DNA of 64,000 nt from positions 5,985,860 through 6,049,859 of the forward strand of contig CAJINV010000001.1 of NCBI GenBank assembly GCA_905178155.1, written 5' to 3'. The translations under genes were made by a program, and so were the position numbers. This stretch comes from Amoebophrya sp. A120 (Eukaryota; Protista; Dinoflagellata). The notes under the pieces are model-generated. The model was given only the letters and a program-made list of their open reading frames with translations, was not told the DNA's origin and did not search any database. Every line of letters begins with the position of its first letter. Within the stretch, counting starts at the first letter, position 1. Shown here one piece after another: positions 1 through 35,200 of this stretch.

Positions 1-191
1 CAGAGGTTGTGCGGGATATTCAGTTTTTGTTATCCCGGGACATTTGTGTTCCTTACCCACTTCCTCATTTCCTGGTTGACCAGTTGGTATGGTCGACTAT
101 AGGTGCCACCCTCGTTTCTCACCTCCAGGGGCCCTGGGCTCACCTCACCAGTGATGTTTCACTTGGTGGAAGTTGACAGGGTTCTACGAGC
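1..191. ncRNA. Putative conserved structured RNA (copy A), family unknown
   Basis: Stems CGGGATA 12-18/TATCCCG 31-37, GTTGACCA 75-82/TGGTCGAC 90-97 and CACCA-GTGA 146-154/TCAC-T-TGGTG 159-168. The same positions form stems of different sequence in 16631-16826. Confidence 0.6.
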
Positions 192-213
192 TATTTTGGG
201 TGTCTATTGTCTA
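1..213. mobile_element. Right end of an introner-nested insertion element (copy A), truncated by the window edge
   Basis: Colinear with 16631-16848. ACTTCCTCATTTCCTG (59-74) equals 16688-16703, and GCCACCCTCGTTTCTCACCTCCAGGGG (105-131) matches 16739-16765 at 26/27. Similarity to the introner at 6200-6343 resumes at about 214. Confidence 0.8.
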
Positions 214-359
214 TTCTAATTACGCATGACAAATGCCCTCTCCGCGTGCCAAGAACTGACTCCTCTTGCTGCTCATGCAACACAGATATTTTTAGAATCC
301 GCAGACAGCATTACAAATTCCACTCATCCAGACCCAGACATTTTTGCATTTGATACCGG
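214..359 (+). mobile_element. 3' part of a family-1 introner (non-canonical intron) hosting the nested insert
   Basis: Ends in the TIR CCAGACCCAGACATTTTTGCATTTGATA (to 355). 224-355 aligns with 6211-6343. Confidence 0.85.
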
Positions 360-3835: not shown

Positions 3836-6800
3836 ATGAGGGCTTTTTCTCCGCGTCCCTCCTGTGTAACAACTACACGATCAGTGCTAAAAACAACGGG
3901 TGCTTGTACAGCAACAAATCCTGCTGGATCGAGCAACAAGAGGCATTATTTCCACCCCTTCTTATCTGCTAGTGCCTGCGGCCTTGCGGTGGTCCTCTTT
4001 TTTCCCGACGTATCCCAGGCCGCTATGAACGTCAATTTGAATGGGGTGGAGGAGGAGGTCGGCCGCCTGCGCGAGCGGATTTTATCGTAAGGAAAAATCC
4101 CCCCTCCCCATATCGAAAACGAAACTTGTCATGCTGTATTTGAGTACACAAATGCAAATGCTAGAAGACCGAGAGCCGCAGTTGTGGCCTAGTTTGCAGG
4201 CAATTTGTGATGGTGTTTCCCACTTCCAGCTGCCTCCTGTCATGCTGCAGAAGCAAGGCTTTCCCACGCCACCCAGTAATACAGTCCGCCTCTTTTCCCG
4301 TCTAGCATGACAAAGCTAATTTGTGACCACAGACCTGCATCACAGACTTCCGTTTCGATATGGGGAGGGGGGATTTTTCTTCTTGATAGATTTTCGTCGA
4401 CCGCAAGTTTGTGGCGAAGCGGGGCAGCCGGACCGCGGTCCGTCGCGGCCTGCGGCGGCTGCCCAAGCCCGTGAAGGCCGCCTACGTATCCTGTGCAAAA
4501 GTATCGTACTCGTATTGCAATCATGCATTACAAATCCTGTACCTATGGTCAATCAGCATTACAAATTTTATTTCTCATGCTGAGAAAATTTGTAATGCAT
4601 TTATACGAGTACGATACTTTTGCAGTTCATACTATGCGGTGTCTGGTGATCATGACCTGTACAACAGCGACGTGGATGAAGACGCGGAGAACGGCGGCAT
4701 CGAGGAGGTTTCCGACCACGCGGTGCTGTCCAAGAGCGAGTCCAGCGACGGCAAGATCACGCCGTCGTCGCGCGACGGCGAGCGGACCCGCTCCCTGTTC
4801 GCGGACTTTTTCGGGGAACTGCTGTTCGGTCGCCGCCCGTCGCCGGACGGCGCCGCCTACTACGCCGGGCGTGGGCGCGGAGGTGGTGGGGGTACTAACA
4901 AGGGCCGCGGCAAGGGCGGGAATTATCGGGGCGGCGGGAGTAGTACAAGGCAAGCGGGGCTTTATTCTACTTCCATGGAGTCATCTTCATCGTTCGGCTT
5001 CGGGGCAGACCTAGAGGAGGAGTTGGTGGAGGAGCACTACCGCAAGCAGGACAAGGAGCAGTACCTGTCGTGGCAGGTGAACGCAGCGGAAAAAACGTGC
5101 TCGTCGCTGGACGGCCCACTGTGCAAGGACGACCGCGACGTGGGAGGTGTGGTGCCGGTGTCGGTGGTGGCCGCCGGGATGCGAGTGCGCAAGAAGCCCG
5201 CGGTGCTGGACCTGTACCGGGAGGAGGCCGTGGCGGCGGACCACCGCAACATCCTGGACCTGGAGTACGGCCGCTTCACCAAGGTCGTCGCCAATCTGAC
5301 CGACCTGGCCACGCCCGTGGAGGATGTCTCGAGCTTCGAGGAGGAAGACCGGCCGTACTGGGCGAGGGACTACGGAGACAGGCGCGGGAAAAAACGAGGA
5401 AAAAACGCTGTCAAGGTCGTGAAGAAGAAGCAAATCGACTTCACCTCCGACTCCGCCGGTCGCAACCTTCAGCACATGCAGGTGGCAGATCTGAGTCACG
5501 GTGCCACGCTCCGGCGTACTTCCCTGTCGTACGTGGATGTTGAATCAAGCCGGGTCCTCGCAGGAGATCATGTGGTGGTCACCACGGCGAGGACCCGCGG
5601 CATCAAAGGAGGCGACCGGCTCATTGCTGAGGGAGACGATGCGGCAGCTGGGAACTCAACATCTCTCGCGGGGTCCTTCATCGAAGGCGACGGCGCGAAG
5701 GGCAGAGGAGAAATGAGAGAAAACGAAGAAGATGTTGAACAGCAGCTCCAGAAGAACCACGAACTGCAACAGTATCATTCGTCTGCTTCAGAGTTTCATG
5801 AACCACGGCAATTTGCATCACGGACCTCGACAAATGAAGCCAGTAGCGCAAAGTCAGCGGCAGCGGCCGACCTGATCCGGGTTGCATTCCGAGGAGGCTG
5901 GCGGATTTTTTCAGACATCGACCGTGAGCCGGTCAACGACGTTCTTGCGGACCACGGCCGCGCAGCTCCTGAAAAGAGCATGCTCCTCGCCGGCGGCCAA
6001 TTTGGGTCAATTCGATTCTCCCGGCCCGTTTTGGTGCGGAAGTTGCTGGTTCGCGGCTCCAAAATGCACCAGCACGCCGTGTATCAAATGCAAAAATGTC
6101 TGGGTCTGGAAGATTCCGGGATTTGTGATGCATATTTTGTATGATCCGTGATGCATGTAATGCATGATCTAGCATCACAGATTTTTAGAGGACTTCCTGA
6201 TGCCTATTCCGCATGAGAAATGCCCTCTCCGCGTAACACAAACTGGGCTCCTGTTGCTGGTCACGCAATACAGATTTTTTTGGAATCCAAGGACAGCATG
6301 ACAAGTTGCAATCTTCCAGACCCAGACATTTTTGCAATGCATACCGTGATATCGGGCCGCGCCCGCTTCCGTGAGGGCCGGGAGGTTTTCCGCGCCCCAC
6401 TGTACAACGTATCAAATGTAAACATGTCTGGGTCTGGAAACTTGTGATGCTGGGTGGCGTCTCATGATGAGGCCACAAGTGCTGGCTCAGCATGACAAGT
6501 TTCTGAGCTTCTAGGTGTTGCCTATTCTGCATGACAAACTGCGTTTCTGCATCACGGAAAAATGGAGCTCTTGGGTAAAGTGCATGACAGATTTAAGAGT
6601 CATGCCAGACAAGCATGACAAACATGCATTCTTCCAGACCCAGACATTTTTACATTTGATACAATGTGACCAAGACCGATTTGCTGGCCAGCTACTCGGT
6701 GCCGGGGGGCTGCGGCTCCCATCTGCGCAGCACCTGCCGCGCCGACGCGGACGAACAGCAGTTCCACCGGGGGTTCCACCACGTTCCTGCTGTCGAGGGA

Positions 6801-9800
6801 AGCAGTGGCAGTGGGAGCGCAGAACCTTCTATGCATGAAATTCAGCTCGTCCCGGCGCCGCGCCAAGATCTTGTCGAGGACCACGATCCGGTTATTTGTA
6901 ATGGCAATGGGTCAACACCAGGAACATCAACCTCCACCTGCCAGAACACGGGGACGGGGCACGACGTGGCAGACGAAGAGGCCCACGACCACGCTTTTCT
7001 TGGAGAAAAACCAAAAAATATCGACAAAAATCTGCTGGCGCCGCTGAGCGGGCCCCTGCGCAACTCGCTGGCGAAGTTTGACAGCGGCATTGATTTCGCG
7101 CAGGACAGCCTGCTGAACGTGGGCCTGGTTGCGGTGGACGAGTTGAGTTTCACGGCCGCGCGGAACGTGGAGGTCGTCGCGCTCGAGGTGACGCCGGCTG
7201 CGTACGACGAGGAGCCGCGGGCGGCTTTCGTGCTGTCGCAGGAGGGCACGGTCGTGTTGGACCACGCGGTGAGCCCCAGCGCAGCGCCCTTCCTGATGCC
7301 CCTGAAGCGAGTGCTGGAGGAGGAGTTCGCGCTCACCGAGCCGGACATGCGCTTGCACTTCCTCCCACCCCAGCTGATGATGTTGGCGGAAATAAAGGAG
7401 GAAGAAGAGAGAAAGAAGCGAGCAGCAGACCATGACGCGTACGCGTTGCGAGGAACGACTTCTACATCTGCAGTTGTAGAGCAGGAGGAGTGGATCCGCG
7501 GACAGCTGGACCGGCACAGCCGGGAGGAGGAGGAGCGGCGGCCGGGATTCGGTTCGCAAAAGCCGAACTACCTCGAGATGTTGCAGAAGAAGTCCCTGCA
7601 CAAGCGGCTGCTGGAGCGGCCCTCGTTCTACAAGATGGCTTCCATCATGCGGGAGGACGCGTTCTTTGCGCCGAAGCGGCGGCAGATCGACAAGGACCTC
7701 CACCTGCTGGACTCGGCCTTCCGGGCGCTGGGCAAGCACCAGCGCCGCAACACCGCCTTCTGGCAGGCCGAGGATCGCCTGTTTAACGAGTGGACCCTGT
7801 TCGTGCAAAACTTCGACCGGAGTCTGTACTATTCATCCACCCAAACTGCCACCACCTCGCTCGCGAGCGCTCATGATGGTATTTCGGCAACACCAGTTCA
7901 AGTTCTTGGTCAAGAAGCAGTAGAGCCACAGCTGGCCGCACCCAGCGGAGGACCAGACTACCGCGAGGATGTTGACCAGCAGAAATTATTTTCGACTTCT
8001 GCAACTTCGACTTCTGATTCTGAAAGCATCTTCTTTGGATCGAATGTAGAGGCGGGGACGCAAAATTATGACGACGGTGTTCATCATCATGATGTGGCTC
8101 TATCAGCGTCCTCGACGTCCTATTTTTACGAAGATTCGATTACAAGAACACCAGCAATGTTGGGACCAGTGGAACCACATCATGTTCAAGAGGAACCGAA
8201 GAACCAGCACCAATTACCGAACGCCGACTCGTCGTCTTCAACAAATTTCTTGACGGACGACGGATTCCTGTTCGCAGATCATGATGCGGATCATTCGGAG
8301 GACGAAATCGAAGAAGACGATGAATTTCTGGAGCAAGCACGCCGGAGAGATCCAGACTTCCCGAAAAAAGAAGTCGAGGAGCAGGAGCAGGACAGTTCCG
8401 AGCATGATAGCTGGGGGGACAGCGTCGTGAAACGAGTCACTTCGAGTCTGACACGGATTTTGAAACCGAAAAAGTACGTGAAACGGCCGCGAAAAGTCAA
8501 GCGAGCGCGGTCGAAGATCAAATCTTCTCCCAGGAGGGACATCAGTTTCCACCAGAGCAGTCGTGATCGTGCCGGGATGAAGCAATCGCCGTCGAGTCGG
8601 CCACGAGGGCGGAGCTACGGGGGGGCGCAGAAGAAGCTGACAATTCCTCGAAGAAGCACAACTGGGAGAGCTTTGTCTAAAAATCATGCGAGTACTAGCG
8701 ACGAGGAGCTTGGCGACTCAGTGTCCGATCATTCCGGCACAGACGCTTCCGAAACGTCACGGGATTCCATCTCGGGATCATCCTCCCCCGAGGGATACTG
8801 TGAGGAAAAATCCTCCCTCCCCATACTGCAAACAGGTACGTTGCTCAATTTTTGATGCTGATTTGTGACAACAAATCCTGTCTCTCTTGCAAGAGGTCAA
8901 ATCCAAAGAATCCGCCGCCCTATGCAGGCGACCAAAACAACACCCCTACGCAGGCTGAGGCTTTGCCTGCAGTGCTGCCTCACTGCAAGACAGAGCTGAT
9001 TTGTGTATACCAATCCAGCCGGAGAAGTTCGTCCGTTTCAATATGGGGAGGGGGGATTTTTCACTTTGATAAGGGATCCGCCTCGGGAAGCAGCTCCTCC
9101 GACTTCGAGAGTGACGAAGATGCTGTGGGTATCCTGAGTAAAAACGTCCCCACCCCAGAGTTGTCATGCAAATCTGCATGCCAAAAATGTTCCGCATGCG
9201 GAGCCCCATGAGAAGCATTTTCTAGCCGTGTTTGGAATTTGTGATGCTATAATCAGCATGATATACTAGATCTGTGATGCTGCTGAACTACCTAAACAGG
9301 ATTACACTACGAGGACAAATTTGTCATGCCAATCGACCAAAGCCAGCTGATTTGTCTAGCAGATTTCCCATCTTGATGACTCTGGTGTGGGGACGTTTTT
9401 CCAAATGATAGTGGGCGGCGTGCTTCTGGATAACATGTTCATGAGCGAGGAGGAGACCGGGCGGATGATGCGCGGCGGCGCCGATGATTCGGGGGATGAT
9501 ATCGCACGAAAAAAGTGTTACACTTACACATTTGTTGTCAATTTAGCAACACAGATTTTCTCTGCATGGGAGGAAAAACTTGCAATGCAGGAGAGATCAT
9601 AAGGGAAAACACATGTGAAATGAGCTTGAAAGCATTTTGTGCGGGACAGAGCTTGTCTGCATTGTTGGGCCTGCAACACAATGTGTAACTGTGACACTTT
9701 TTCCTTTGCATAGACGATGGCCAAGGCGTGGCTATGATGGACCTCGCGGATCTCTTGGCGCAAGTTTTCGTGATGGCCCCCGAGGACGGCGGACAAGAAC

Positions 9801-13782: not shown

Positions 13783-16700
13783 ATGTCGGTGTTTCACCTG
13801 GGAATCGTTTGTGCATGCGTCCCGTGGTTTTACGGTCCGTATGGGCAGCAATCTTTGCAACTGGCGCAGTACTTGTACGATACCTACCAGTACCAAATCT
13901 CGTGGTTCGTGTACGAGTCGCAGCCGCTGCCGCAGGACAAGATGGACAAGTACCCCTGGGTCCGGTTTCATCGGATCGGTAAGGCACCTTGGATCTACAT
14001 TTCGGAGCTGAACGCCGAGTTCCGAAAAGCAAGTGCAGTTGCGTCTTCTAGTACTTCTATTTCGGCGAAGAAAAGCCCACCGGCTTCATCCGGCAAGGGC
14101 CGGAAGAACAAGAACGGGGAACTACAAGCTCGAACAACGTTGCCGCCAACTTGGGAAAAAAAGAAAATTGATGCTTTTGTCACGATGATGGACATGAACC
14201 GGATTTTTGTGGACGAGCCCTTCGAGCCGGTGGCCGTGTCCTTATGCATTGCAAATATGTCTGGGTCTGGAAGGTTGCAACTTGTCATGCTACATCTGGA
14301 TCGTGCAAAAATTTGTGTTGCATGATTACCAAAAGAGGTCCACTTTTGAGCAAGTTTAGAGGCCTTTTCTCATGCAGGAACGGCATGATAGAGATCTCAC
14401 AGAACCTGTCATGCTAGGCCGTGCATGCCAGACCGCGTGGGTCATGGAAAACCTGCATGACAAGCCTAGCAATCTTCTACAGAGCCACACATTTTTGCAT
14501 TTGATAGTCCTGGTTTCCCAACCACTGGGAGAAGCTGGACATCCACTCGCGCCACGCGCTGAGCCAGTTCGAGGTCGTATGTCCCTTGGCGCCGTCGGAC
14601 GCCGTTTCGATCCAGGCTATCAACTGTAAAAATGTCTGGGTCTGGAAGAATCCAACTTGTCATGCTGATTTTGAATTCTAAAAAAATATCAATATGTATT
14701 GCATGAGCAGCAAAGAGAGTCCAAGTTTTGCTGCACGGAAAGAGCATTTATCATGCGGTATAGGCATCAGGAAGCCCTCACAAAATCTGTGATGTTAGGG
14801 CATGCATCACAGACATCAGGAGTCATGCAAAATGTGCATTTTGGCTCAAGTGGAGTTTCGCAAGGAAAGTAGATAAACACCCGTACGTGGCGGGTCCTCT
14901 GTGCCCCTTTACAGTAGTACAAGCTAGAGCATCGGCGCCCCGAGCGTCCGTGCGAACACTAAAAACGCACATGGCCTCTCCTCCGACGACAGCCATCGAC
15001 TTACCGTCTTGCCCACGCCCAGAAGCACGGTAAAGGACCGCCACGCCGCCAATGACTGCCGGTGGATTGGGCAGGTGCCATGACAAGCATAGCATGGACC
15101 TCGGCATAAAGCACAACACGAGCGGAAAAAGGGCGCTTCGTTACTATCTTCGATGAGAAGGCTGGTCACCACACGCGGCCCAGCACAATCCCCAGCATGA
15201 GTGGAGTCGGACGCTTTCGGGAAGACATCTTCCGCGCAGGGTCCGCGCATCAGCAGATGCCGCGTGGCGCATCACGGGACGCGAGCGTGCGCTGGAGCCA
15301 CGGCCATGTGATGGCGATCCTCTGGGCGGAGCAAAGTAGTATAGAGCTATTTTTTATTGTGCTTTTTGGTTTCCTCCTCTTATGTCCTTGCATGTGAAGT
15401 AGCTTCGTTGTGTCTCCTTCTCTCTTTCATCATTTGGCCGGTCTGCTACTCTGTTGTTGTGTGCACGGGGGCGGAACATGTCCGTCCCCGTCGTTGCCTC
15501 AATTAAATCACAGGTGCCCGCTCTTCCTGTGGACCCTGGAAGATGATGTTGTCGCTCGACCAAGATTCGCCTGCGCTGTCACCGCATCTCTCCCACCCCC
15601 AGAATCCAGGGCAGACCTGATAGTCTGTGCGCGTAAAGTCCCTGCTGTGACTCTAGCGGCACCCCTGATAGAGCGTGTTTGGATTCTGGGCATTTGCGCA
15701 CAGGACTGCGGCCCAGCAACGCAGGCCAGGGCGGGACCATAGGAGCTTCGCGAGGCGGCGCGGGTACTCCTAAATGGCTTACGGTAGTGGAGTCGGCGGG
15801 CTGCTGGACGTATCTTGAGTTCCCCGCCCCAGATGCGTATGCGAGCGCGCGCGGCATTTCCAGCTCCCTCGTTCGAGGTAGTAGCCATGTCTGGGTTCCC
15901 CACGAGGACGAGATACGAGTGGAAGCCAGTGCCGACCAACATGAACGCGTGGCGACGGATCCCGCAAACGAGATGATGGGTGTTGCTCACCGCCTTCGGT
16001 GTTGGCGACGTGTCTGGATGCTGGATGTCCTATGTCCACCCCTCTCGTGGCCGTTCTGGTGCGCCTTCTCATGTGAGGTCGTTGACATGGCTTGGTGGGA
16101 AATTCCCGTTGCGCGAGGCTCTTGCCTTGCCCTCTGTCTTCGTCCCCAGTGGTGTTGCGACAGTAGAAGCGTCTGTTGTGGCCGTCGGAGCTTGCTCTGG
16201 GTCTTGCGGCTCCTCTTGTCTTCGGTGGAGTACCTGAGTGGCTTCTGCTGCTGCCTCCGTTGACTTTTGGCTGCTGCTTGACTGGCGGTTGGGAACACTT
16301 CAGGCGTCTTTGTGCTGTGCTTCGGCCGCGTGGTCCCCAGTTTTCCCCGGGTCCGGAACTCTGGGTTACCTTGGTCGAGTTGGTGTCACTGTCGGTTCAC
16401 CTATGTCCCTGCCTTTCTGTTCTTGCCACTGGGAACAGTCTGTGCGTTTCTTTCGTCAGCGGCTTCTTGGCGCTGAAGCTCGTTGACGATTGTTTCGGGA
16501 GGTTCCTTACGGCCCCTGAGGACATTGCCTCGCTGCCGACCAGGCCGAACTTAGAGGTCGGCTTCGGGAAGGCTACCCGGAGTTGAGTCTGTTTCGGCAG
16601 GTCTCTTGTGAATGCGAGGGCAGTGGTTGGCTGAGGTTGTTGGAGCGTTCCATAGTGTCGCTCCAGATCATTTCTGATCCTTCTCCAACTTCCTCATTTC

Positions 16701-19700
16701 CTGTGTGGTCTAATGCAGATTGCAGATCACAACACAGGGCCACCCTCGTATCTCACCTCCAGGGGGGGCGCGCGGACCTCGCTTGCCATTTCGTTTGGTC
16801 TCGCGAAAGTTCCAGCTCCCCCGAGCGGTAGTAGGGAATTTCCAAGAGTGCAAAATGTGCATGACAAACCTGGCGATCTTCCAGACCCAGACACTTTTAC
16901 ATTCGATCCAGGAGCAGCTCCCACACAAGGTGGTGCGGCACGTCCCGCACGTCATCCGCCATGTTGAACGAGACAAAGCGAGAGCACACGATAAAGAAGT
17001 AGGATCTCCACGAGAAGAAGATGGAGATCTAAAAAAGGCGGCCTTGCGCAAAAAGTTCGGGGTTCCGCCGCGGGCGTTCATAGTGCTAGTGGTGTTTTCC
17101 AACTACGATCGGCAGCACAACCGCAAGATGCCGGACATGAGTCTCGCCGTGTTTCGTGAACTGTACCGGGAGTCCGTGCGAAACGGCACCGCTGTAGAGG
17201 AGCGGCCCTTTTTGTACGTCCACGCGCTGAAGCATCCGGACCTGCAGAAGGAGCAGGGCAGCGAGGGGATGCCCATGCACCTCATTTGGGATTCGCTACA
17301 GCAGGACGGGGAAATCTTGCCAATCCGCGTCAACGAGGACGAAATGCCCTACGCCGACATTCTGCAGCTCCCGCAGATGGCGGACGTGTTTCTCCATCCC
17401 GCTGTATCACGTGGCGTGAAAACTAGAACCTTAGACCAGATGCTGTCATGGGCTATAATGAACGGATCTCTGTACCAAATATAAATAAACACCGTTGAAA
17501 TTATCATTATGCTAGCACATACAAAATCAATTGCGGAGGCATTTTCTTATGCTAAGAAATATTCAATTCCTCGTGCTTGTGACGGTGAGGATTACACCAG
17601 GTTCTTTTTCACTGCATACGAAAAGGCGGAGGGCTTTGGGCTACCCGTGCTGGAGGCGCAGTTGGGCGGCATTCCGGTCGTCACCACCGCGTTCGGGGCC
17701 ATGCGCGACTACGCGATGTATGGGCGCGCAGTACCTCCAAACGGGCCGCTTTTTATGGAGCTGGGTTTCGCAGCCATGCCGGATTTTCAAGGGACCCTCA
17801 GCGCGCTGCGGGACTTACACTGGAGCCTCACTTCCATTCGGAAGGCGTCGGGAGGAATTGCGGACAGCCAAGGAAGAACTGGGCGGAAGCAAGAAGAGCG
17901 GCAGGAAGAAGTGCTAGCTTGCAAAAGCAGGAGGCCCAGGGAAGGTGAAGGGCGGAGTGCGGAATTGGATATTGAAGACGGGCCTCGGAGTCTCGCTGCG
18001 CCACGCGCTGCATCAAGGCGGGAGGTCCAGGTGGATAGTTTAGGCCTCGTGGTCGATGGCGGTGGTGAAGGGAACAGAACTAGTGCGGAGAGCCACGACG
18101 CCCGCTCGATTGTTCAGCGGCTGCGATGTGAACTCGAAGAGCAAAGGGAGCGTGCGCAAGCATACATTGCCGCCAACATGTCCGCTGCCAGTGTGGGAGA
18201 CGCGTTCCACAGTTATGAATTGTAGAAAGGAAATCTTCCTCACGAGGAGACGATTCAAGTGCAGGAGGTTAGTGAATGCATGCAACTCGAAGTCAAGCGA
18301 CATTTCTTTTTGCTGCACGATGTCACTGCGTTCATCTTCTCCATTCTATATGAATCTTCTATCATCGGAGCGGTTTGTATAGCATTGAAAGCACGAAAGG
18401 CTTGTAGGCGGAAAAACGATGAATGACAACGATGAGGCTCCTCTCCTTTTTTCAAAAATATTTCACTACGTCGTGGTACGAAAGCAAAGTACAAGTACTC
18501 GTGAACATACTTGACTCAATTTCTGCAGTAGCAGGGGGAAGATTCAGTTTTTCTTTCACAGCGTCGTATTCGCGTCCGTCCGGAAGCCCGCCTACGTATC
18601 ACACAGAAAAAAGCTGGCAGGGCATATTTGTAATGCAAAAATAAATACGCAAAAAAATCTGTCATGGGTGGCCCCTTAGCATGCTGTTTCGGATATGCAA
18701 CACAGATCTTTTTGTGTATTTATTTTTGCATTACAAATGTGACCTGCCAGCTTTTTTCTGTGTGATACTACGAGACAACGTTTCGCGTGTTTTCGTACGC
18801 CGAAAAGGTCCCCAAGAACCCGCCGGAAACGTCGCGGAAGGTGAAGTTTTTTGCTAAGAGCATGAAATCTTTTTTCCCATTCCCAATGTGAAGGTGATAC
18901 TTGGTTGTACAACCTATATGCTGGTCCTTTCCGTCGCTGCGCCGGTTTTTACACCTTGCCTGCGGTGCTTGCCTGGGAAAGAAGACGTTTTTAGACAGAG
19001 TTGAGGCCAACGCATGGTAAGTCTTCAGCGTTGTAACCAAAGAGAACGAGACCTCAAAGAGGCTTGTTTTCGGGGAAGGTAAACTTGTAAATGCAGAAAA
19101 CAAAAGCTTTCTTGTTCATACCAATCTTCGTCTCGCCAAATTTCGTCATTGACCGTGACAAAGTAAATTACGTAATCAAGAATTACGTGATCAACAAGAC
19201 TGACCACAATGCGACCACCTCGGAGCTGGCGGTGACAAACAGGAGCACCACGCAAAGCAAAATTGATGGGGAAAATGCAACGCAGCTGGTCGCGACATCG
19301 CAAAACCTAACGTCTTCTAGTGCCGATGCCGAAGGGCCCTTATGCAATATCGCACCGACCCGGCCTTGCGCTAGCGCTTCGCCCTACCGTTGTCTTTCTG
19401 CTGCTTTCCATGATTTGGTTCATTTTTTTTTTTGCATTCTGTTTCTTTTCATTGTCTTTCTATGTCTTCTATCCGCGGTTGTTGTGCCGGGGAGAAGTGT
19501 GCGCATCGAACTGCTCTTGTAATGAAGACCAGCAGAAAAAAAGAAAAACGGATGCCACGTCCCACGTTGCTGTGGTGCTAGTTTTCGTAGTTGTCATGTA
19601 CTTACCTGATTTTTTGTATGAGTACAATCTGACGGAGCAGCAGCAGCCGGCGTCACAGCGGTGGTGGCGGCGCCAGGTGGTCCGTGTTTGCACTTGCATT

Positions 19701-20220
19701 CTGCACGCTGTGGGTGGGATCACATTACGAGCTATCGGGTGGGGAGATGCCACGGTTTTCTTTCGGGAAGGGTGTTGTGCAGAAGAAGGCCGGCTCTCGG
19801 GTGCTCGGGATCCTGGACGGCGGTGGAGCGTCGGGAGAGATGCCGACTCTGATCATGCGCCGCAAGGTGTGGAGAAAAGTCTGGAAGCCGGATGTTCCTG
19901 CGGTGCAGATCTTTCAAAAAATGCACGCAATTAGCCGGGATTTCCGCTACGCCGGCGTGGTCGGTGTACGGCGTCCCATATGCGAAGAAAAAAGTGTTAC
20001 AATTACGCATTGATGTTTTGCGGAACAAGCAAGACAGACCACAACCTTTGTCATGCCACAAATGCTTTCGGCTCTCGTTTCGTAACTGTTTTCCTTTGTG
20101 ATCGCTGCGTTGAAGATGTAGAGCAGCTTAAGGTAGTGGAACTGTAACACTTTTTTGTTGGGATATCCCACACAACAGTGGGGTCAGGGAGATTACGCCC
20201 TTCCGGGCGTGAAACGGTGA
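13783..20220 (+). CDS. GT-B fold glycosyltransferase (GT4 / Glycos_transf_1-like), multi-exon; 3' exons uncertain
   Basis: Spliced motif DVFLHPA^KAEGFGLPVLEAQLGGIPVVTT. Exons 13783-14241, 14511-14616, 16913-17403, 17623-18212, ~18565-18595 and 18772 onward are in frame. Structure between ~18840 and 19680 is unresolved, so the last part could be a separate gene. Confidence 0.75.
14242..14510 (+). mobile_element. Introner, TIR family 1
   Basis: TATGCATTGCAAATATGTCTGGGTCTGGAAG ... CACATTTTTGCATTTGATA. Direct repeat GTCCT/GTCCT. Join gives AVS^WFPNHW. Confidence 0.9.
14840..16848. mobile_element. 2009-bp non-autonomous insertion (copy B) with a 14-bp target-site duplication
   Basis: TGCAAAATGTGCAT occurs at 14826-14839 and 16849-16862, while the intact introner has the site once (TGCAAACTGTGCTTGACAAACC near 59005). 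No TIR and no recognisable ORF. Confidence 0.88.
16631..16826. ncRNA. Putative conserved structured RNA (copy B), family unknown
   Basis: Stems TGGAGCG 16641-16647/CGCTCCA 16659-16665, GATCA 16666-16670/TGATC 16675-16679, CCTGTG 16700-16705/CACAGG 16733-16738 and TCGC 16779-16782/GCGA 16803-16806. They covary with 1-191. Confidence 0.6.
17404..17622 (+). mobile_element. Decayed introner
   Basis: TAT...ATA ends and residual TIR GTGAAAACTAGAACCT/AGGTTCTTTTTCAC. Removal rebuilds the P-x-x-x-EGFG glycosyltransferase motif. Confidence 0.8.
18213..18564 (+). mobile_element. Decayed introner
   Basis: TATGAATTGTAGAAAGGAAATCTTCC/GGAAGATTCAGTTTTTCTTTCACA. In-frame join AFHS^VFASVRK. The 3' end could instead be the AG at 18561. 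Confidence 0.6.
18596..18771 (+). mobile_element. Young, almost fully palindromic introner (MITE-like)
   Basis: About 60-nt TIR starting TATCACACAGAAAAAAGCTGGCAGG/CCTGCCAGCTTTTTTCTGTGTGATA. Direct repeat CTACG/CTACG. Confidence 0.92.
19978..20169 (+). mobile_element. Introner, TIR family 3
   Basis: AAAAAAGTGTTACAATT/AACTGTAACACTTTTTT. Direct repeat TCCCA/TCCCA. Confidence 0.88.
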
Positions 20221-20714: not shown

Positions 20715-21772
20715 TCTACTGAATCGTTTTCGTTCAAGGCTTCGGTCTGGAATAAGTGCTTGCCTTTTTCCTTCAGAACACAGCAAAAAACAACTATCCC
20801 AACTTGATATAACAAAATCCCAACTTGACTCCAGCAACGACCTGAATCCGATCTGCTTCTCTCCTACATTGATTTGGTAAAGAAAAAGAGACAGTAGAGA
20901 GAAAAGTGAAGCCTTGGATCGAAAACCATAGGGGAATTCTGTCGGTTTGGGTTGTTTCTTATGGAAAATCATGAGTTGACACAGCAAAATCCCAAGTTGA
21001 CAGAAAACACGACTACTACACGCTCTCAGAGGAGTGCTTCCACGTTCTCAGACAACTCCTTCATCACCCGGGAGTGCTCCTCAAGTGGATGCGTGGACGT
21101 ATTGCATTGAAAGGACGACGCAGGTGGACGGTGTGGAGGTACTCCACACGGACTATGGACGCAGGGAGACGCGGACGTCACAACTGGACGTCGTGGGTGC
21201 CTCATGCGCGCACGATATATGGGCCATGGGGGCCGCCCTCTTTGCACGATATGGCGGCCCCTTTTTGTGCGAAATATGGGCCTTTTTTGCACGGTGCATG
21301 GGCCTCTTTTGTACGATGCATGGGCCTTTTTTGTACGATATATGGGCCATTTTTGTGCGATATGTGGACCATTTTTGTGCGATATGTGGACCATTTTTGC
21401 ACGATGTGCGGGCCTTTTTCGCACGAAGGTCTAGCACTTTTCGAACGATATTCCGGTCGCGCCGGGACTGCTGCCGAGCCTCTCCGCCTGGAGAAGCCAG
21501 GGCCCTGGGTGGGCAGAATTGGCGATGCTAAACACTACCACTCGGGCAAAAATACCAATATCGTGGAAAATCGCCAACAACGGGAGCGAATTCGCTTGGG
21601 ACAAGGCCAACAGCGCTACCCTGCTCCACCCTAGCGCGGGCTGTATCTACCCGGTAGAAGCAGAGCTCCCAAGCCCCCACAGAAGGCCCCCTAGCTACAG
21701 GCCCCTTAGCTGGAGGCCCCCCAGGAGGCTGTATCTACTGAATCGTTTTCCTTCAAGGCTTCGGTCTGGAAT
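20715..21772. repeat. ~980-bp segment bracketed by a 39-bp direct repeat
   Basis: TCTACTGAATCGTTTTC(G/C)TTCAAGGCTTCGGTCTGGAAT at 20715-20753 and 21734-21772, one mismatch. Confidence 0.8.
21210..21426. repeat. Minisatellite, ~22-nt unit, about 9-10 degenerate copies
   Basis: Consensus approximately TTTTTG(C/T)(A/G)CGATAT(A/G)TGG(G/A)CCA, head to tail with no spacers. Confidence 0.9.
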
Positions 21773-22375
21773 TATGCACGCTCAACGGCACAAACACTGC
21801 TGCGTTCCGTGAGGCTGACTACTAACTTTGGGTTTTTCATCAGCTTGGTAAAACTCGGCTAAATCGTTCTTGTTGTTGCAGTTTCGTGCGTCTCTCATAC
21901 ATCTCGTGTTGTTCTCAACAGAAATAGAACAATGTTGAAATACGCCACTTCGTCCTCGCCTTGACATTCGTGCGTAGGTGATTTGTTTCGAAATTTCCCA
22001 TGTAGTGCAGCCCTGTACGCAGTCGCAAGTGTGCAATGCTTTTTACGGAAGTGAAAATTTCGTTCATACACCATTTTTATCGTAATTATTCATACGTAAA
22101 ATAACTCTTCCCAGGCCCCCCGCGTAGCTTACTAGCTTTTGTCACAAACTCAGGTATCGGCAGTATAGTTTGTACCGCCGAGTAAAAGGGAGAAGTAAGT
22201 TGTCTGTGTGTGGTACGTCGGGCTCGGGACGGACCTGACCATTACGGCTACTGGCACTCGTGTGCGTCAAGTAGTTACAACTTGCTGCTGTAAAGTAATC
22301 GCAGCAGAGAGGCAGTGCCAGTGGCATCTCGAGGTCGACGGGGAGTAGGGTCGTACCCGGGGCAAGTCGAGCGGC

Positions 22376-25300
22376 ATGTCGAAGGTTATTCGCTTTTTCT
22401 TTTTCCCCACGGCGCCGGTGTTCCGCGAGCTGCAGAAGTGGTCCAGGAGTTGCGTCGATGTTGTCGGCACAGCGCAGGCGTACACCCTTACAACGAAGCG
22501 GCGAGAAAAATTGCGAACGGTTCTGCCCGCGCGCCGCGCTCGGAACAGAGTTTTGATGACGATGGACAGGCAGCGCCGCCCGGCTCGGGAGACAAAGGCT
22601 GAGGGGCGACGAGCACGAGTTCATCATCGACGAGCCGATACCATTGTCAAGAATTCCCCGCCCTTGAAAAGACACCACGCTAGCAGTTCGTTCGTGGACG
22701 CGCGGAAAAATCATCAGGGCGACGATAGTCAAGGACAACAAGGAGGTGGATGGAGTACGGCGGCAGAAGTGTTGAACCATGTGGAGGCGGCGCTGCGAAA
22801 TCTAGAAGCGAAGGTGCAGGAGATCGCGACCGTTTGTAAGAAGGACACGGCGAGCCACGCGTTACTGGATGTGTCCGGTAATATGGCCCATCTGGGGGTG
22901 TGCACGGACGACAGCCAGTGCTTGCAGCGGGACGGCCCCGGGGCGCTTACTAAAGTCGATTATACACGCGTTGGAGCGGCTGTCGGCGAGACGGGGAGCG
23001 GTGCGCAGCAAACAGCCGATGTGGACGTAGAGCTGTGCATTCGCAACGGCGTTGCCCAGTTATTTCTCAACCAAACCGGGTCGCACCTGCGGGCGGAACC
23101 GCCGGTCGTCACCGACCCGGCCAGCGGGGAGGGGTACTACGAGCGAACGGAGGGCTTTGCTACGTTCGTTGTCGAGAGAGTCCCGGGAACAAGCGATATC
23201 TCGGTTCAAAAGCAGGCCGCAGACCGGCGGATCATCGTGCAGTGGCCGCATCAACACAGTCGCGCCGAGAAACTGAATGTTGCCGCCGATGGAAATGCGC
23301 AGATGGTCGAGAATCCGCTACTGACGCATGAATCCAAGACCGTAAACGCCCCCTGGTACGTGCGCACGCTCACGGGCGGTGTGCAGAAGAACGTTCTCAT
23401 TGCACTGGACCGCTCACAATCTATGGATGTTCCCCCAAAGAAGCTGCCTGGTGCCAGGCGAGCTGCCATTCAGATCCTGGATAGCCTCGCGGTGACGGAC
23501 ACTTTCTTTGTGATGTCATACCAGCATCCCGTACAGTTTTCGGCGTTCGAATTTGTCCATACGACGGACTCCCACAAGGAGAGCGCCACTGAGTGGCTTA
23601 ATAACATTTACGCTGCCGGTGGATCGACAACCCGTCCGGACGCCGAGTTTGGGTTGGGTACGGCCCTGGTCGTGGGCAGTCTCGGCGTTGTGCCAGAACC
23701 ATGGCGGGACAAGATCACCAGCACAGTGCCCGCAGACGAGAGACCTGCGCAACTTCCGGCCGTCACGGATCCACCAGATTGCCCGTTCGCTGCTAGTCAG
23801 GGTTGCGAGAAGACGGTGCTCGTGATGATGTCGGACGCTCCCCTAAAACAGGGCCAGGAAGATGCAGAAAAGGGACAGTGGCTAAAGGCTGTTCGAACGC
23901 TTCTCGATGCGGATGCGGCGCAGTCACAGGGCATCTATTCGTCATCTAGTGGGGACGGTGGCAGTGGTTCAACACCAGAGCCGGCGGTGCTCGTCAATGT
24001 GTATGCACTCAAAAACCCGTTCGAGTTCTTTGGAACGCCACCGCAGGGCCCGTCGCTAACGCCCTATTACGAAACACTGGCCGGCAAGTTTGGCGGTGAA
24101 GCAATGGCAATGGATGACAGTCAGGACATGATGGCAACAATGTCGCGATACTGGCGCTCATTGGTCCAGGGCGCGAGCGACGCGAGCGGCTCCCGGAGTG
24201 TCGTCTGGACTTGGAATGATGTAGCCACCACGGAAGATGCGACGGGTAGGAGTGAGCTCACAGCCTGCCGTCGCATTGATTTCAACACTGGCAACAACGA
24301 CTTGCAGGGTGTTATGTGTGTGGAACCCAGCGCAGTGCTGCCTCTGACCCTCAACGAGCTGCAGTGCCTCCCGAGGTTTTTGGAAGAAATGCACACTCGG
24401 CTACGGTCGACGAACTGCAGTGTGGAAAACAAAGCAAAATGCCGCGCGGAGGCAGTGGTGTGCGCAGCTGCAGGATGGACTCCATGCGACTGCGACAACA
24501 CCGTACAACTTCGAGTACAACAGCGTACAAAACTACGAGAACAATGGTGGTTACATAGGGACAGTAGCGACTGCAGAGACCCTTTTCGAGGTAATGAAGA
24601 AGGCGATTACTGCAGTACCGGAATCCGAACAAAAAATCACGACCGAGAAGCGCAAGTCAAACCACCCCCACCCGCAATTGTATCGGATACAAGACCCACT
24701 GGATGCCGAGCTGAAGGCTTTGGCCTGCTACTCAAGCCCCGTGCCGTCGCCGGATAGCACACCAGGACCCGGAGGCCTGACCACGGGGAGCCCGCCAGGG
24801 CCGACACCCGGGCCTGCTCCGGGGCCGAGCCCCAGTACTACCCCTGGGCCGAGCCCGGGATCGCCCGGGCCGGGGCCGAGCACAACCGAAACCCCGCCGG
24901 GAGGCCCCGGAAGCCCGTCTGGCACCGATCCTCCAGGGAACCTCGGGCCAGAAGTGGTTTTTTCGGACACAAACACGACTAGCGCTCCCGGATCGAATAG
25001 CACCACCGTGCCGCCCGCGCATGACCGTGCCCCGCCTGACGATGTCGCGAAGACGGGCTTGCTTGCGCCCGCGGCGGGTACTGGTCTGGCGCTGTTGTTG
25101 CTGGCAGCTTTGCTACTCGTTTTTTCCGCCCGCGGTGCTTCTGCGGTGCCCGGGGTAGCGGAGGACGAGGGCGACGACCGGTGGCTGGGCGCGGATGTCC
25201 AGGACCCACTACCGTGGGGCCCCACCGAAGAGGCGCTGCTTTCCATCGGGCTGACTCCGCATTACGCCGCCCAGGTGCTGGCGCAACTCACTGCAGAGGG

Positions 25301-29295: not shown

Positions 29296-32200
29296 ATGCC
29301 GAAGGGAGAATCACGAATCTCAATCTCCGACACGAGCGGCGTGGTGCGCGGATCCGGTTCTGGCCGCGGGAAAGATGGTAAGTACGCCGCTCGCGGCGCT
29401 GCCAGTGCGCTGCTGCTGCAACTGGCGGGCCCGTCCATCGTTTTCCACCAGTTGTACCAGGAGGAAGGGCTCGTATGGGGATACACGCTAAAGAAGAAAC
29501 TCTCTCGCCGGAACCTGTCGTCGTCTTCCACGGCACAAACCCGTACACAACTTTTTCCCAGCAAGAGTGGCCGCCGCGGGGCCGGAAGAACGGGTCTCAT
29601 CCACCGAGCGCGTGGTGCGAAGAAGCAAGTTCCGCTGGCCGTGACCGGCGACAAGAGAGCCAGGAGCGTGGAACTGGTGTCGGTATCGAAGCGCATTCCG
29701 GGGTTGCCAAGGCAATCTTGTCAAGCGAATCATGCATATAGTAAAACCTTGCGTGAGTGGGGACGTTCCCCCGCAAAGCCACCTTAGAAACGAAGGCATC
29801 AGCTCTTGCATTTTTTTTGTTAGTGTCTGGGTCTGCTCATATTCTTGTTCATATGAATGATGATATGGACATTTCGCCATTGCGTTTGCTGTTGTGACTG
29901 AGATTGTCTTGGCTTCTCAAGATTTTGGCAGAATAAGTATCCTTGCACACCGCTGATGAGCTAGAGTTTCGCGTGCCAGCGGACGAAGCGACCGAAGATT
30001 CACGCGTCCTACAACAAGATCGGCTGGTTAGGAAGACGTCCCGAGATGTAGGCAATCGTGCAGTTCCCGAAGGCCCGTCTGACGGGTCGCCTTTCGCATT
30101 CCTGGAGCAGCAAAGAGAATTGCGAAAAAAGGAAACAAAGAATAAAAACAGGAGCAAAAGCAAGGAAACAAATAGCGGCACTGAAGACCACACCGATGCG
30201 CAAACGGTGGACGCTTTCCTTCGTGGGACCGAAGAGAAGCTGAAGAGACTGCGGGATGAAATCGTGGGACGAGCAGGAACTTGTCGTGATAGTGATTCGC
30301 TGGAATTTACTGATGTGACAGCGGACAAGCTCGGAGAGATGGGTCACCAGGATTGCGATTCGGATTGCATCACTTTTGACCATCTGCCGGCCTCACCCCC
30401 CTCGGTAGATTACGGCAAGGTCAGCGTGCGTCATCCGACGAGTACCAGTGGTGATTCTCTCGCGAAGAATCTCTGTCTAGAGCGGGCGATCGCAGGCCTC
30501 TTTCTAGAGGAATCGGAGAAAACTGGGGAGTCGCAAGCGAGTGCGAGTAAGCTGTTGCGTTCTCCAATCATAGACGCAGCATCCGACGACGCCGATTTGG
30601 GGTTTGCGTCCGTGGTGCTGGAGCCCGCAACCCTTGAGCCTGAGTCTTCAGTTATGGTTCGCTGGCCCCACACGACCACCGAAAATCTGTCTCTGACTAC
30701 TCTCCCGTCGTATGTACGGACACTTACGGGTGGTGTTACGAAAAATGTGTTGCTTGCTCTCGATCGGTCGGGATCTATGGCCGACCACACATCTGATGGA
30801 GTCGATTTACCAAACGTCTGGCCTGTGGCGGTAGCAGCCGCCAAGGCGGTGCTTGGAGTTCTCGATGTATCTGACCGGTTTTTAGTAACGACGTTTCAGC
30901 ACCCAGTGCAATTTTCTGCGTACGAATTTGTCCAGGCGAGTGCGCAGAACGTGCAACTGGTCGAGGATTGGGTATCCAACAGAAGGCTACTGGCATCTCT
31001 CTCCAGATTCCATTCAAATTTGCATTGATCGGTATATATAAATGAAAATGAAAATCTATGTATATCAATTATGATTTGAGCATTTTATTTTCTCATTCTC
31101 ATGGAGATGGATTGCGATTGCAACGTCTGACTCTGAAGCTGTACCTATGTTCAATTTCTCAGGCGTTGTAGCGTCATAAGTACACAACCATGAATACCCA
31201 CATAATTGCAAGTGTGCAGGCACAGACTTGTGTGTTGCATACGGTTTCGGAAGATGCCTTTATCTGACCTGCATAGTGCTTGAACGACATAGTACCTGCG
31301 GATGGGGCACTGTACAGGAAAGACACGGACGAGGCTGAACGAGATTTCGACGAGCGTCCGGACATGGAATTTGGCATCGGCACTGGACTGATCACCGGCA
31401 CACTCGGCGTCGTTCCGAAAACTTGGCGCGACTACATGAACGATAAACTCACCCCCACAAACGATACTGATACTCCTGTGGAAGACAGATCGCCTATACC
31501 ACCAGAGCCATCGTCGCTTTCTCATGAGTCGGAACAGGTGACTCACGAATGTCGATGGGCTTTTAGCGAAACTTGTGAGAAAACGTTGGTAGTAGTGATG
31601 ACAGACGAGGAGTTTACCGAAAAGCAATATGAGGATCCAGATTACCGAGTCTCAGTAGGAGGAGATGTGGCTGTGGGTCGGGGAGATTGGCTGGCCGAAA
31701 TGCTGCTAGGTGGAAATGGAAACGTGGGTCCATTCGCATATGATCAGGGGGAGGAGCCCGCCGTCCGGTTTAGCCTGTACAGGTTCACCACAGAAGAGAT
31801 TACTTGGAGACAGCCCGCATATCAATGGTAAAATTTTCGTTTTCTATCACAAAGCCATTTTAAGTCAAAAATGGGAAACACATTTTTTTATTTTTGAAAT
31901 ATAGTTGAGGGCCTAGCACCAGGCCGCGGACGATTACATCACGAAGCTGAAATTCAAATTTCTCCTGAAGTCGTGAAGACAGCAACGAAAGTGGATCTTT
32001 AAGCACACCCGGTGTGGCTCACATTTCAAGGATTCACATTCGTCGATGCATCGAACGATCGAACTCAGCGAAATGGTGTTAGTCAGAAGTGGTTTTCCCA
32101 CAAGAAATACTGGAATCAATAGTAGATAGAAGTATGGACGAAAGTCAGTCTAAAATGAGAAGCTGATTGCGTCGCATGTCGTGCAGATCGTTATGCTTGA

Positions 32201-35200
32201 TGCATTTGCCAGGATGTATGCGTCATTGATTGCTCTGCGAAGCGATCAAATGATAAATGATAATCATCCTCATCGGGCGGGTTTTTCAAAACTACAGCTA
32301 CCATTTGATATCTGTTTTTCGATTTTGTTTCTCCTCTTCATTGTGTGTTGACGCTTTTAGAATGGTTGCGAAAACGAAATTTTCCCTTTCATACCTTCGG
32401 CGGTGTCTTCCCCAACATTGCCGCGAAGTTTGATGGCACTACCGAAGCAGTGTCGCGGAACGTACCACAGAATGATCCGCGTGCCTTACCGCAGCGCATG
32501 GGGCAGTATTGGAGGACATTAATGAGCACGGCAGGGGAAGACCAGGAGGCCATTATCTGGTCGGCTTTTCAAGACGAGAGCGAGGGTTATCAGTTGACAG
32601 CCTGTATGACGCTCACGATTCCAACGGGCGGTCAAGAAAGTGAAGAAGAAGACCTGCGTGGCGTTGTATGTCTCGACCCTCGTGCCGCGTTTCCAGTCAG
32701 TCTTGTGCAGCTGCAATGTATGGGTAATGTTGGCGACTTCGACGCGACCGTGCGAGCAAAACTCGACACGGCTTTGTGTAATATGACGGAGCAGAAGGAG
32801 ACACGTTTGAGCTACTGCGAGAAGCTACAAGACGCGTTGAAGTTGAACAGGACAGCAGAGGGCGAGCCGGTAACCACGGAAGTATTGGATTTGTTGACTC
32901 GCTTCCAGGGTATAGAACAACGTGATACTCTTGATGAGGCTATTATGCGGTCTCTGACCGCGATTGAATGCGAGTCTGGAACGTGCGACCATTTACAAAG
33001 AAACACGGCGAAAGCAGAAGATGCACCCACGGGCGCTTCTGACAATTGGACTATGCGCCGTACCATGCATCCGACAGGAACTTTATTCGTGACTGGAGAC
33101 GAGGCTGTCAGCGACACGTTGCCGGAACAAGCTGTATGCAAAAACACTACCGAGCCCGAGCCAGTTCCTGACGTGTGTGTGTGCAACAACGTATCGCAAA
33201 AAGAAAGCAGACCCCCAGCAAGAGAACATTTTTTGGCGGTCAATGTACTGTGCATTCCACGAATACCTCAAAGCATTGATTGAGATACATTAGTCAAATT
33301 GATTCTTTTGCGATCAAAAAAGGGGCAGACGCAGGTCCAGGAGCCGCCCCGAAAAATGATCGCGGGCGAGGTTGCGACGCACTATTTTCTACGCGTCGAG
33401 AAAAACCCGCACAGACGAAGTTCCAGCGATCCTTTTCTGCATGTTGGTCTGGTTGCCCCTTCTGAACGAAGCATATTTTGTGTTGATTGAACAAATTCGT
33501 TGGCTTCCATATGCATTTTGATTTTCCACGCTGCGAGGGACCAAGTCATGTTCTTTTCTGACTGGAAGGGAAACGCTTTTCAACATGACAGAATGGACAG
33601 GTCAACGAGACGGCGAACCTCGTGTCCTGTCCGCTGGGTAACAACAAGCAAAATTGTGTGCTCGATCAGTGTCACGACGGCTACGAAATTCGAATGAACT
33701 GGCCGGACGATGGTGAAGTCGGGTGTTATCCGAGCTGTGGTGGCGCTCAATGTCTCACGCCAGATGGTGACGGCGTGTACCACTGGCGGAACATGGCGAA
33801 GGGGGATAGTGAGTTGTGTGGTCTGGAGAACGCTTCCTCGCCGGTCCTCACCGACGACAAGGCCCTCGTGTTCAACGGTGTCACAGCAGTTCCTGCCGTT
33901 ATCACCGCTTGCCAAGATTCATGCTGCACACAGGGCTGCAAAGCACCCGATGCAGGACAGACGCAGTATTTTGATTTTGTTTTCTTGTCGAGCACCACAG
34001 AAACTACACGCTTATAGCATCCGTCTCAATCAACACCCGAGACCACGGCCGCCTGATCTATGCCATCCCCATGATCCCTATTCTTCTAGGCATAAAACTC
34101 ACATTTACACAATGATAGATAAGTACTAAAAAACCATTACAGGGCCTATAACTTTTCGCTCGTTACGGAGACGGAGTGGAAGCGGTTTCTTACTCTTGAC
34201 GCGATGCTATCCTGCGGAACAGCGCTGGCTTGGAATATTTGCAAATTCAAAAAAGAAACAAGTAAAAGTAGGGGATTGTGGATCCGGAACAGGCGCAATC
34301 CAATCTGAGGAATTGGAAATGTAAAGAAACGTATATATTTGCTGCAGAGATGGTTTAGCCATGTGCTGGAGGTAATCCGAGGTGATTGCAATAAGGACTG
34401 TGGTCAGAAGATGATGTAGTTCGATAAAGCATGTTTCTGTAGGATAGTGCCAGCCCGGTGCGTCGAATGATACCGCGCAATTGGAACAATTGCACAACGC
34501 CAGTTGCAGTATTGGGTACACCGGAGCGCCATTTTTTTACTGCAAGGAATCCGGGATGGAACTACAGAAGGGTGGTTGTGTCGTTCCGCCAGTCACGACC
34601 ATGGCCCCTCCCGTCGGGGGCTGCATTCAGCCGGACGCAGACGCTTTGCCCGGATACGATTTTACCGACGTCGACTGGGCCACTTTTCTCGCACATCCAG
34701 ATATGCAGCCCGGGGCGAACAACACGGAAGACAGCGCAGTGCACGAGAGCAACGCCGTTTGTGCGAAGAATTTCACAGGTACGCCGAAGTTTTGGTGCGT
34801 CGCCACCGGTCAGCCGGTGCAGGTGGCCGGCTGCGTAGTTAGTGAGCATCCTCAACCGACGAGCACAGTGAAACCGACAACGAAAGGCCCGCACGAAATT
34901 AGCACCTATGGAATGCAAACATTGCTGTGGGTCAGGGTTCTGGTTGAAGATACTTACATGCATAAGGAGATGTTTGTATCCGCGCCCTGTTTCTAATTCT
35001 GTCATTTTTGAACGAAGCAGTACTAGTCTAGCAGCCAGCAATTTACTTGTCCAAATGCTAGTACAGACCATGTTGACCACCACGGGTGGCCAAGGGACCA
35101 AACATTTGAGAGGTCCCACGTATCGTGACTCGAATTTCGATCGGGAAATCCGAATCGCAGCACGGCAGCATGACAAAGCACGGGCACTTCTCGTTCTGAT

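Follow-up and report, generated by a model that had tools for sequence, protein, structure and literature searches.

Insertions of a probable non-LTR retroelement at a short motif within introners of Amoebophrya sp. A120

Can introners themselves become the preferred landing sites of another mobile element? The question is raised by a 64,000-nucleotide stretch of the genome of the dinoflagellate Amoebophrya sp. A120 (contig CAJINV010000001.1, positions 5,985,860 to 6,049,859 of the forward strand; hereafter the window), in which a 2009-bp insert lies within an introner. From this insert and a second, partial one, the initial annotation had proposed a site-preferring, non-autonomous retroelement that uses introners as a safe haven. 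After following up these two copies and identifying others, we are highly confident that motif-targeted insertions in introners are real, and we consider a retroelement that lacks long terminal repeats (a non-LTR element) to be their probable source.

The window contains numerous short elements with terminal inverted repeats (TIRs) that start with TAT, followed by seven variable bases and a run of A, a form that corresponds to the introner ends of Amoebophrya strain A120 (PMC7789003). Amoebophrya introners carry short direct repeats (PMC7789003, PMC12130899) and make up 17% of one Amoebophrya assembly (PMC7789003). The hosts of the insertions described below show the same features, namely TAT-start TIRs, a flanking direct repeat, membership of a repeated family and absence from mRNA (the junction as read from one RNA-like contig). 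Uninterrupted members of the host family in the window, family 1, are found at 6082-6344, 14243-14506 and 58795-59069. The parts of the two insertions and their hosts are as follows.

Positions 14617-16912, plus strand: composite intron formed by a family-1 introner and the insert, from an RNA-like contig; the joined exons are open
Positions 14617-14839, strand not assigned: left part of the host family-1 introner with a TIR arm at 14619-14649, from sibling alignment
Positions 14826-14839, plus strand: left 14-bp target-site duplication with GCAT at its end, single in uninterrupted siblings
Positions 14840-16848, plus strand: 2009-bp copy B of the mobile element, without terminal repeats or recognisable protein, likely 5'-truncated
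Positions 14840-14848, plus strand: nine bases at the left junction, absent from a copy that runs further left (loose end before 14849)
Positions 16615-16826, plus strand: conserved structured 3' domain with an outer helix, three hairpins and a terminal stem ending at CGAGC
Positions 16827-16848, plus strand: 22-nt tail specific to the subfamily of copy B
Positions 16849-16862, plus strand: right 14-bp duplication
Positions 16859-16867, plus strand: target motif GCATGACAA, the duplication ending between GCAT and GACAA
Positions 16863-16912, strand not assigned: right part of the host introner with a TIR arm at 16877-16907
Positions 1-215, plus strand: copy A, right end only, of a second subfamily and 97% identical to the copy on contig L001 (below), with two 7-nt repeat units in its tail
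Positions 216-356, plus strand: right part of the family-1 introner that hosts copy A (family-1 match over 216-360), entered 12 nt before the GCAT/GACAA boundary, with the central motif at 224-232

The description of copy B as an insert between perfect 14-bp duplications, followed by GACAAA, is borne out, since the duplicated sequence TGCAAAATGTGCAT has exactly two occurrences in the window (14826-14839 and 16849-16862). Its placement within a family-1 introner holds as well: deletion of 14840-16862 restores a gapless alignment across the junction to the three uninterrupted family-1 introners, in each of which the target site is single, and the TIR arms of the host (14619-14649 and 16877-16907) are 90% complementary. 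The nine bases at 14840-14848 were possibly added at insertion. Copy A, which had been recognised as a diverged homologue of the right end of the insert, aligns over positions 1-195 to 16612-16830, with 75% for 41-131 against 16669-16765 (E 1e-5). It is known by its right junction only, as its left side lies beyond the window, and this junction has the same GCAT register as the complete insertions. Alignment to family-1 introners confirmed that the hosts of copies A and B have opposite internal orientation.

Further copies came from a blind scan of a metagenome collection, in which the query was a 21-nt pattern internal to the shared right end and the flanks were ignored. Of its three matches, one (L003) was dropped as a chance hit before any flanks were counted, having only a seed block of 24-26 nt in common with the element and no other homology to it. 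The remaining two are true copies, both from one other public assembly. The first, on JACKZZ010011804.1 (L001), is 217 nt long (5856-6072, minus strand), is flanked by exact 14-bp duplications that end in GCAT and are followed by GACAAG, and lies at the TIR-proximal motif of a family-1 introner. The second, on JACKZZ010013787.1 (L002), is 351 nt long (5199-5549), with 15-bp duplications that differ by one mismatch, end in GCAT and precede CAGAAA. The introner that hosts it belongs to another family (TIRs at 5096-5118 and 5574-5596), has a sibling at 9107-9348 with GCATGACAAA at the insertion position and also appears, on weak evidence, to interrupt an open frame. Thus, in both true copies that the scan recovered (2 of 2), the flanks proved to be those of TIR introners with 14-15-bp duplications ending at GCAT, and random flanks, which would have spoken against the initial annotation, were not encountered. 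Exact-pattern scans of viral contigs and prokaryote genomes gave no match to the element.

To what extent is the site of insertion fixed? The duplications of the three complete insertions measure 14, 14 and 15 bp and have GCAT at their end in 3 of 3 cases, and the 10 duplicated bases upstream of GCAT vary between sites. The target motif originally put forward, GCAT followed by GACAAA, is present at copies A and B, but the target is looser than GCATGACAAA and reads GCAT followed by [G/C]A[C/G]AA, a consensus that was defined after L002 was known. Because GCAT precedes 1.55% of site-orientations inside the introners of the window, the two blind matches to GCAT have a p of about 2e-4, location in an introner being taken as given. 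The hosts differ in that copy B and the L001 copy occupy the same position of family 1, at its TIR-proximal motif, copy A lies at the central motif of family 1, and the L002 copy lies in a different family. The proposal that the insertions are separate events therefore stands, now with three host positions, two families, four differing duplicated or adjoining sequences and three lengths. Elements have been termed target-specific when over 20% of their copies lie in a single type of sequence (PMC4494074); here the share is 4 of the 4 copies seen, a small number.

The motif is itself abundant in introners. In its exact 9-mer form, GCATGACAA, it is present 16 times in the window, where 0.72 occurrences would be expected; the loose consensus is present 29 times, against 2.1 in shuffles. 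With a rough introner caller, which misses interrupted hosts and makes 6 calls on the shuffled window, loose-consensus matches fall inside introners in 17 of 29 cases in the window, 29 of 33 in L001 and 9 of 13 in L002. In introner families with different TIRs, GCAT[GC]A[CG]AA is repeated internally and in both orientations, in the manner of sub-terminal protein-binding sites.

Positions 4083-4388, 6082-6661, 9130-9410, 14243-14506, 19979-20165 and 58795-59069: introners with the repeated internal motif, also found in L001 and L002

If the site is shared, so is one end of the element. A right end of about 215 nt is common to all four copies, of which the three that can be measured are 2009, 351 and 217 nt long. 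The spacing from CGAGC to the insertion site, on which the initial annotation had remarked, is 37 nt in A and B, but it is 35 in L001 and 41 in L002 and is thus not fixed. The sequence beyond CGAGC, which differs between A and B, turns out to belong to the element, because A and L001 share the 22 nt after CGAGC while their flanks differ; across copies this tail spans 20-25 nt after the invariant CGAGC. In A, L001 and L002 the tail shows a 7-nt repeat, present in at most two units, after which come 12 target bases (judged by eye, with an ambiguous run of T in L002), so that a core of 12 bp and 2-3 nt of microhomology could together make up the duplication. A guide-RNA reading of the TnpB/Fanzor kind was rejected because A and L001 have the same variable tail despite different flanks.

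The right end also appears to fold. Across the three distinct sequences available for comparison, which represent two subfamilies, all 7 pairs of hairpin 1 are of the Watson-Crick type both in B and in A/L002, 5 of them through compensatory changes of both partners, hairpins 2 and 3 include eight G-U pairs on the plus strand across B, A and L002, and a 10-pair outer helix is invariant in B and L002. The consensus folding energy is -47.4 on the plus strand against -32.7 on the minus strand, and the plus-strand energy is lower in 9 of 9 segments. Such a pattern, in which structure is kept while sequence drifts, favours an RNA of the plus strand. An Rfam search of 14500-17000 returned two matches far under their gathering scores, one of them in the host, and neither a ribozyme nor a small nuclear RNA (snRNA) head, the true 5' end, where the Pol III- or snRNA-derived head of a short interspersed element would be sought, being missing from the sequence of copy B.

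The left end, by contrast, varies between copies. The summed depth of contigs from two DNA runs, a sign of a multi-copy family and not a copy number, is 96-646 over the insert against 21-31 over its flanks in X1 and 171-1445 against 43-54 in X2. Some of these contigs match with 0-2 mismatches and others are diverged, and depth rises toward the right end. Two X2 contigs extend element-like sequence about 130 nt or more to the left of 14849-14862, and because other copies continue leftward in this way the left end of copy B is a truncation point. Six X2 joints, including 14907-15466, 15044-15596, 16122-16497 and 16645-16743, suggest internally deleted or replaced copies. Within 14840-16848 there are neither long terminal nor terminal inverted repeats. 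Every one of the six frames of copy B contains at least 10 stops, and an open reading frame (ORF) for reverse transcriptase (RT) and endonuclease, as expected of an autonomous long interspersed element (LINE), is absent from this copy; the minus strand is A-rich, with stop-free stretches of 98-205 codons. Reading the insert with reassigned stop codons, as in another Amoebophrya, was tried and abandoned after no Pfam match appeared in six frames. Substitutions among insert copies over 14921-16533 favour a single codon phase (15 of 26 among the rows listed, p 0.009, uncorrected for the choice of phase), and this region may represent a decayed ORF. The description of the element as non-autonomous is true of the copies seen, but the sequence of other copies extends leftward by 130 nt or more.

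The window does contain a candidate for an RT-encoding gene. An ORF at 40139-45205 (plus strand, 1688 codons; 1679 aa from 40166-45202) has a weak Exo_endo_phos_2 match at E 0.017 and RT-like motifs recognised by eye, together with no Pfam RT match and one relative at 44%, and is likely a very divergent LINE. It was discarded as a partner enzyme, as it has no DNA or translated similarity to the element; around it, exact 10-mers gave no flanking duplication at the motif.

What becomes of the insert when its host gene is expressed? A 2788-nt RNA-like contig (X4, record 17) matches 14000-14237 and 16902-17400 without mismatch, with 99 nt between the two matches, which is the length of 14507-14605; the middle exon is inferred from this gap length. 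By this layout, both introners, including the 2296-nt composite, are absent from the contig, and the exons joined across the composite intron form one frame without stops. The initially proposed junction 14616^16913 is thus supported in that the composite is skipped, but its exact cut is ambiguous because an 11-bp repeat (14606-14616 and 16902-16912) lies at both borders. The raw RNA run X12 gave a match to an introner only, at less than 90% identity, and is uninformative, and patchy X4 coverage inside the insert was not counted as evidence of expression. The host had been called a glycosyltransferase gene, and a Glycos_transf_1 match is indeed found at 17485-18222, but at E 8e-5 it is under the Pfam cut-off. 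An AT-rich stretch at 17485-17612, after an in-frame stop in this glycosyltransferase-like gene, is probably a further intron. Removal of the element along with its carrier during splicing likely spares the host gene from harm. This much of the safe-haven idea agrees with the RNA-like contig, but that harmlessness was the evolved driver of the targeting is our interpretation.

Target-primed reverse transcription characteristically leaves a structured 3' end that is fixed, 5' ends that vary, a tail of repeats and a long duplication. The present copies have 14-15-bp duplications that vary by site, no LTR or TIR of their own, and a common 3' end combined with variable 5' truncation, and the original reading as a non-LTR retroelement gains support from the shared right end, the variable left ends and the structured, RNA-like end. 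Because neither RT nor endonuclease was found, we infer the mechanism from these sequences, and a non-LTR, target-primed insertion in plus orientation, in which the endonuclease may choose the site, is probable. The family likely comprises either 5'-truncated LINE copies or a LINE-dependent non-autonomous element. Under this model, a plus-strand RNA with a structured 3' end would be bound by a partner RT, an endonuclease would nick the bottom strand at a point that lies upstream of the GCAT boundary by 12-15 nt, the RNA tail would prime at the nick through 2-3 nt of microhomology, cDNA synthesis would halt at variable points, and a cut of the top strand after GCAT would produce the 14-15-bp duplication. 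The concentration of the motif in introners of several families, together with the intact terminal repeats of the host, would then let the insert leave the mRNA with its carrier introner. More tentatively, a protist retrotransposon lineage may have evolved specificity for a cross-family introner motif, likely the binding site of the mobilising protein, and so gained tens of thousands of landing sites in expressed genes at no coding cost. Such an element may be transcribed within the excised intron and would mark a route to the introner machinery; we regard this combined scenario as possible, if somewhat short of probable.

Several observations weigh against this account. The sites seen number four, one of them only half a site, and of the 22 loose ends 6 are listed, none of which is the right-hand flank of another copy. 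Pfam searches of 12 insert ORFs and six read-through frames gave no RT, endonuclease or other family above cut-off, protein searches for longer relatives of the insert, a weak test, found none, and the 1679-aa ORF lacks the 3' structure of the element (no match to 3'-end hidden Markov or covariance models). Copy B has neither a tandem-repeat nor a poly(A) tail. When sequences are folded singly, the z-scores are modest and similar for the two strands (plus/minus: B -2.7/-2.8, A -2.0/-1.9, L002 -0.7/+0.2), the helices were hand-picked with G-U pairs allowed, and a T-rich plus strand favours G-U by composition. As for splicing, the RNA nature of X4 is a guess (none of the runs that contain this sequence is on record as RNA), and the presence of the insert at this locus in the X4 cells is an assumption. 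Lastly, the most exact boundary is at the inferred 5' junction, unlike that of Utopia, in which the 3' boundary is precise and the 5' boundary variable (PMC4640811).

One alternative, which we consider unlikely, departs from target-primed insertion by a site-reading enzyme in the targeting step only: the RT complex would be tethered to a protein, perhaps the introner transposase, that sits on repeated GCATGACAA, or would use the nicks which that protein makes. The motif, which resembles a sub-terminal protein-binding site in recurring several times per introner and in different families, would suit such tethering, as would the differences between sites in the 10 bases upstream of GCAT. Nonetheless, in all three complete insertions one boundary lies precisely behind GCAT, where a sequence-reading nuclease would place it, the R1Bm endonuclease cuts both strands of its target specifically (PMC1919474), and an introner transposase was not found in strain A120 (PMC7789003).

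The element could instead be read in reverse, its right end being a 5' end (a structured leader or ribozyme), with the first nick after GCAT and variable 3' ends. This orientation stays alive, as an improbable one, because the precise boundary of Utopia is the 3' one and the most exact junction here is at the left end. The stop-free stretches of the A-rich minus strand and the codon-phase skew described above point the same way. Target-primed insertion normally lacks variable 3' ends, however, and the G-U pairs and energies favour the plus strand, the tandem-repeat tail is at the right, and there is neither an Rfam ribozyme nor a frame with fewer than 10 stops among the six.

Still less probable is a DNA-based element with one fixed end, such as a rolling-circle or single-strand transposon, in which the hairpins would be single-stranded DNA signals and GCAT a tetranucleotide target. 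In its favour are a right end that is fixed and a left end that varies, the internal deletions of other copies, the conserved target of four bases and the purely Watson-Crick pairing of hairpin 1; against it are the G-U pairs in hairpins 2 and 3 and the lack of any relative, by exact pattern, in prokaryote genomes or viral contigs. To our knowledge, elements of the IS200/605 type make no target duplication. Helitrons make none either (PMC12130899), against 14-15 bp here.

That there is no targeting at all, ordinary copies having survived in harmless introners abundant enough to form 27-30% of the L001 and L002 sequence (rough caller) or a single insertion having hitchhiked with an amplifying introner, to which the shared family-1 position of B and L001 might point, is scarcely credible, as survival cannot fix a base-level GCAT register and a single hitchhiking event is excluded because of the three host positions, two families and three lengths.

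Other repeats of the window are noted here for completeness. A near-palindromic element with a TAT start, 67-nt arms at 94% and a 39-nt loop between them is present at 18596-18768, and a 39-nt direct repeat (20715-20753 and 21734-21772, about 1 kb apart) surrounds a degenerate tandem array at 20715-21772. A tandem paralogue family with a DxSxS motif, which we take to resemble a VWA domain, is found at 22349-24757, 29937-33283, 48643-52992 and 55055-57553, with repetitive Ala/Glu-rich tails following.

How does this element compare with known systems? The notion of a parasite of a parasite, raised in the initial annotation, fits the nested pattern, but the idea has precedents in Tx1L/Tx1D and SINEU/Tx1-Mar, and the novelty lies in the introner target. 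Tx1 (Tx1L) of Xenopus laevis is inserted in the non-autonomous piggyBac element Tx1D (PMC4494074, PMC6719617), Tx1-9_AMi inserts in Harbingers, and crocodilian SINEU-3 and Tx1-Mar are inserted in the DNA transposon Mariner-N4_AMi, where 313 of 347 near-full-length SINEU-3 copies occupy one site (Kojima 2015, PMC4494074). Retroelements aimed at DNA transposons have been reviewed as safe-haven strategies (PMC6719617). Because of these cases, the targeting of DNA transposons by retroelements is a kind already known.

The resemblances are close. Like Tx1L, the element occupies a fixed site inside a non-autonomous TIR transposon and invites the safe-haven idea; unlike Tx1L, which encodes its own APE endonuclease and RT, it has neither in the copies found, and the accessible parts of PMC4494074 and PMC6719617 do not call Tx1D an introner. 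SINEU-3 and Tx1-Mar share with it non-coding copies, some of them 5'-truncated, whose independent insertions fall at a single site in an abundant DNA transposon. SINEU-3, however, has one target family, whereas the motif here is common to at least two introner families; the accessible text does not report the Mariner-N4_AMi target as an intron; and SINEU elements have a U1/U2-derived head (PMC4494074), whereas Rfam reveals no snRNA head here, the true 5' end being missing. The 16-bp target duplication of SINEU-3 also ends in GCAT (PMC4494074), probably a coincidence, though of interest should the partner turn out to be Tx1-like. Utopia, Keno, R1 and R2 likewise insert in a fixed register in repeated sequence with duplications up to about 20 bp (PMC4640811, PMC1919474), but into conserved host RNA genes or microsatellites (PMC4640811) and not into a transposon motif.

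The introners described in Farhat 2021 (PMC7789003) and Gozashti 2025 (PMC12130899) are the hosts of the element. The accessible parts of these two papers do not describe a nested fixed-site element in introners or the internal GCATGACAA motif, and four 13-14-nt element motifs had no match in the 12 of 14 supplement files of the introner papers that were searched. A literature search that lay mostly outside subscription journals and Repbase found no report of introner targeting, of a protist case or of a cross-family target motif. Some A120 introner families have been assigned to non-LTR or LTR elements (PMC7789003, PMC12130899), and retroelement matches occur in some TIR-family rows among the A120 rows listed (PMC12130899); from our analysis, some catalogued retrotransposon-derived or hybrid TIR/retroelement introner families could be TIR introners with nested inserts.

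Relative to the known cases, what is new is the use of introners as the target. The short internal motif common to introner families offers a handle on the mobilising enzyme, which is unknown according to PMC7789003, and if a partner enzyme does insert at a 9-bp motif with a stagger of 14 bp, it would count as a new site-specific RT/endonuclease. The Tx1 clade is described as animal (PMC4494074); beyond its few animal cases, the element analysed here takes the targeting of one transposon by another into a protist and into introners, a setting in which splicing removes the carrier and the haven is located within coding genes.

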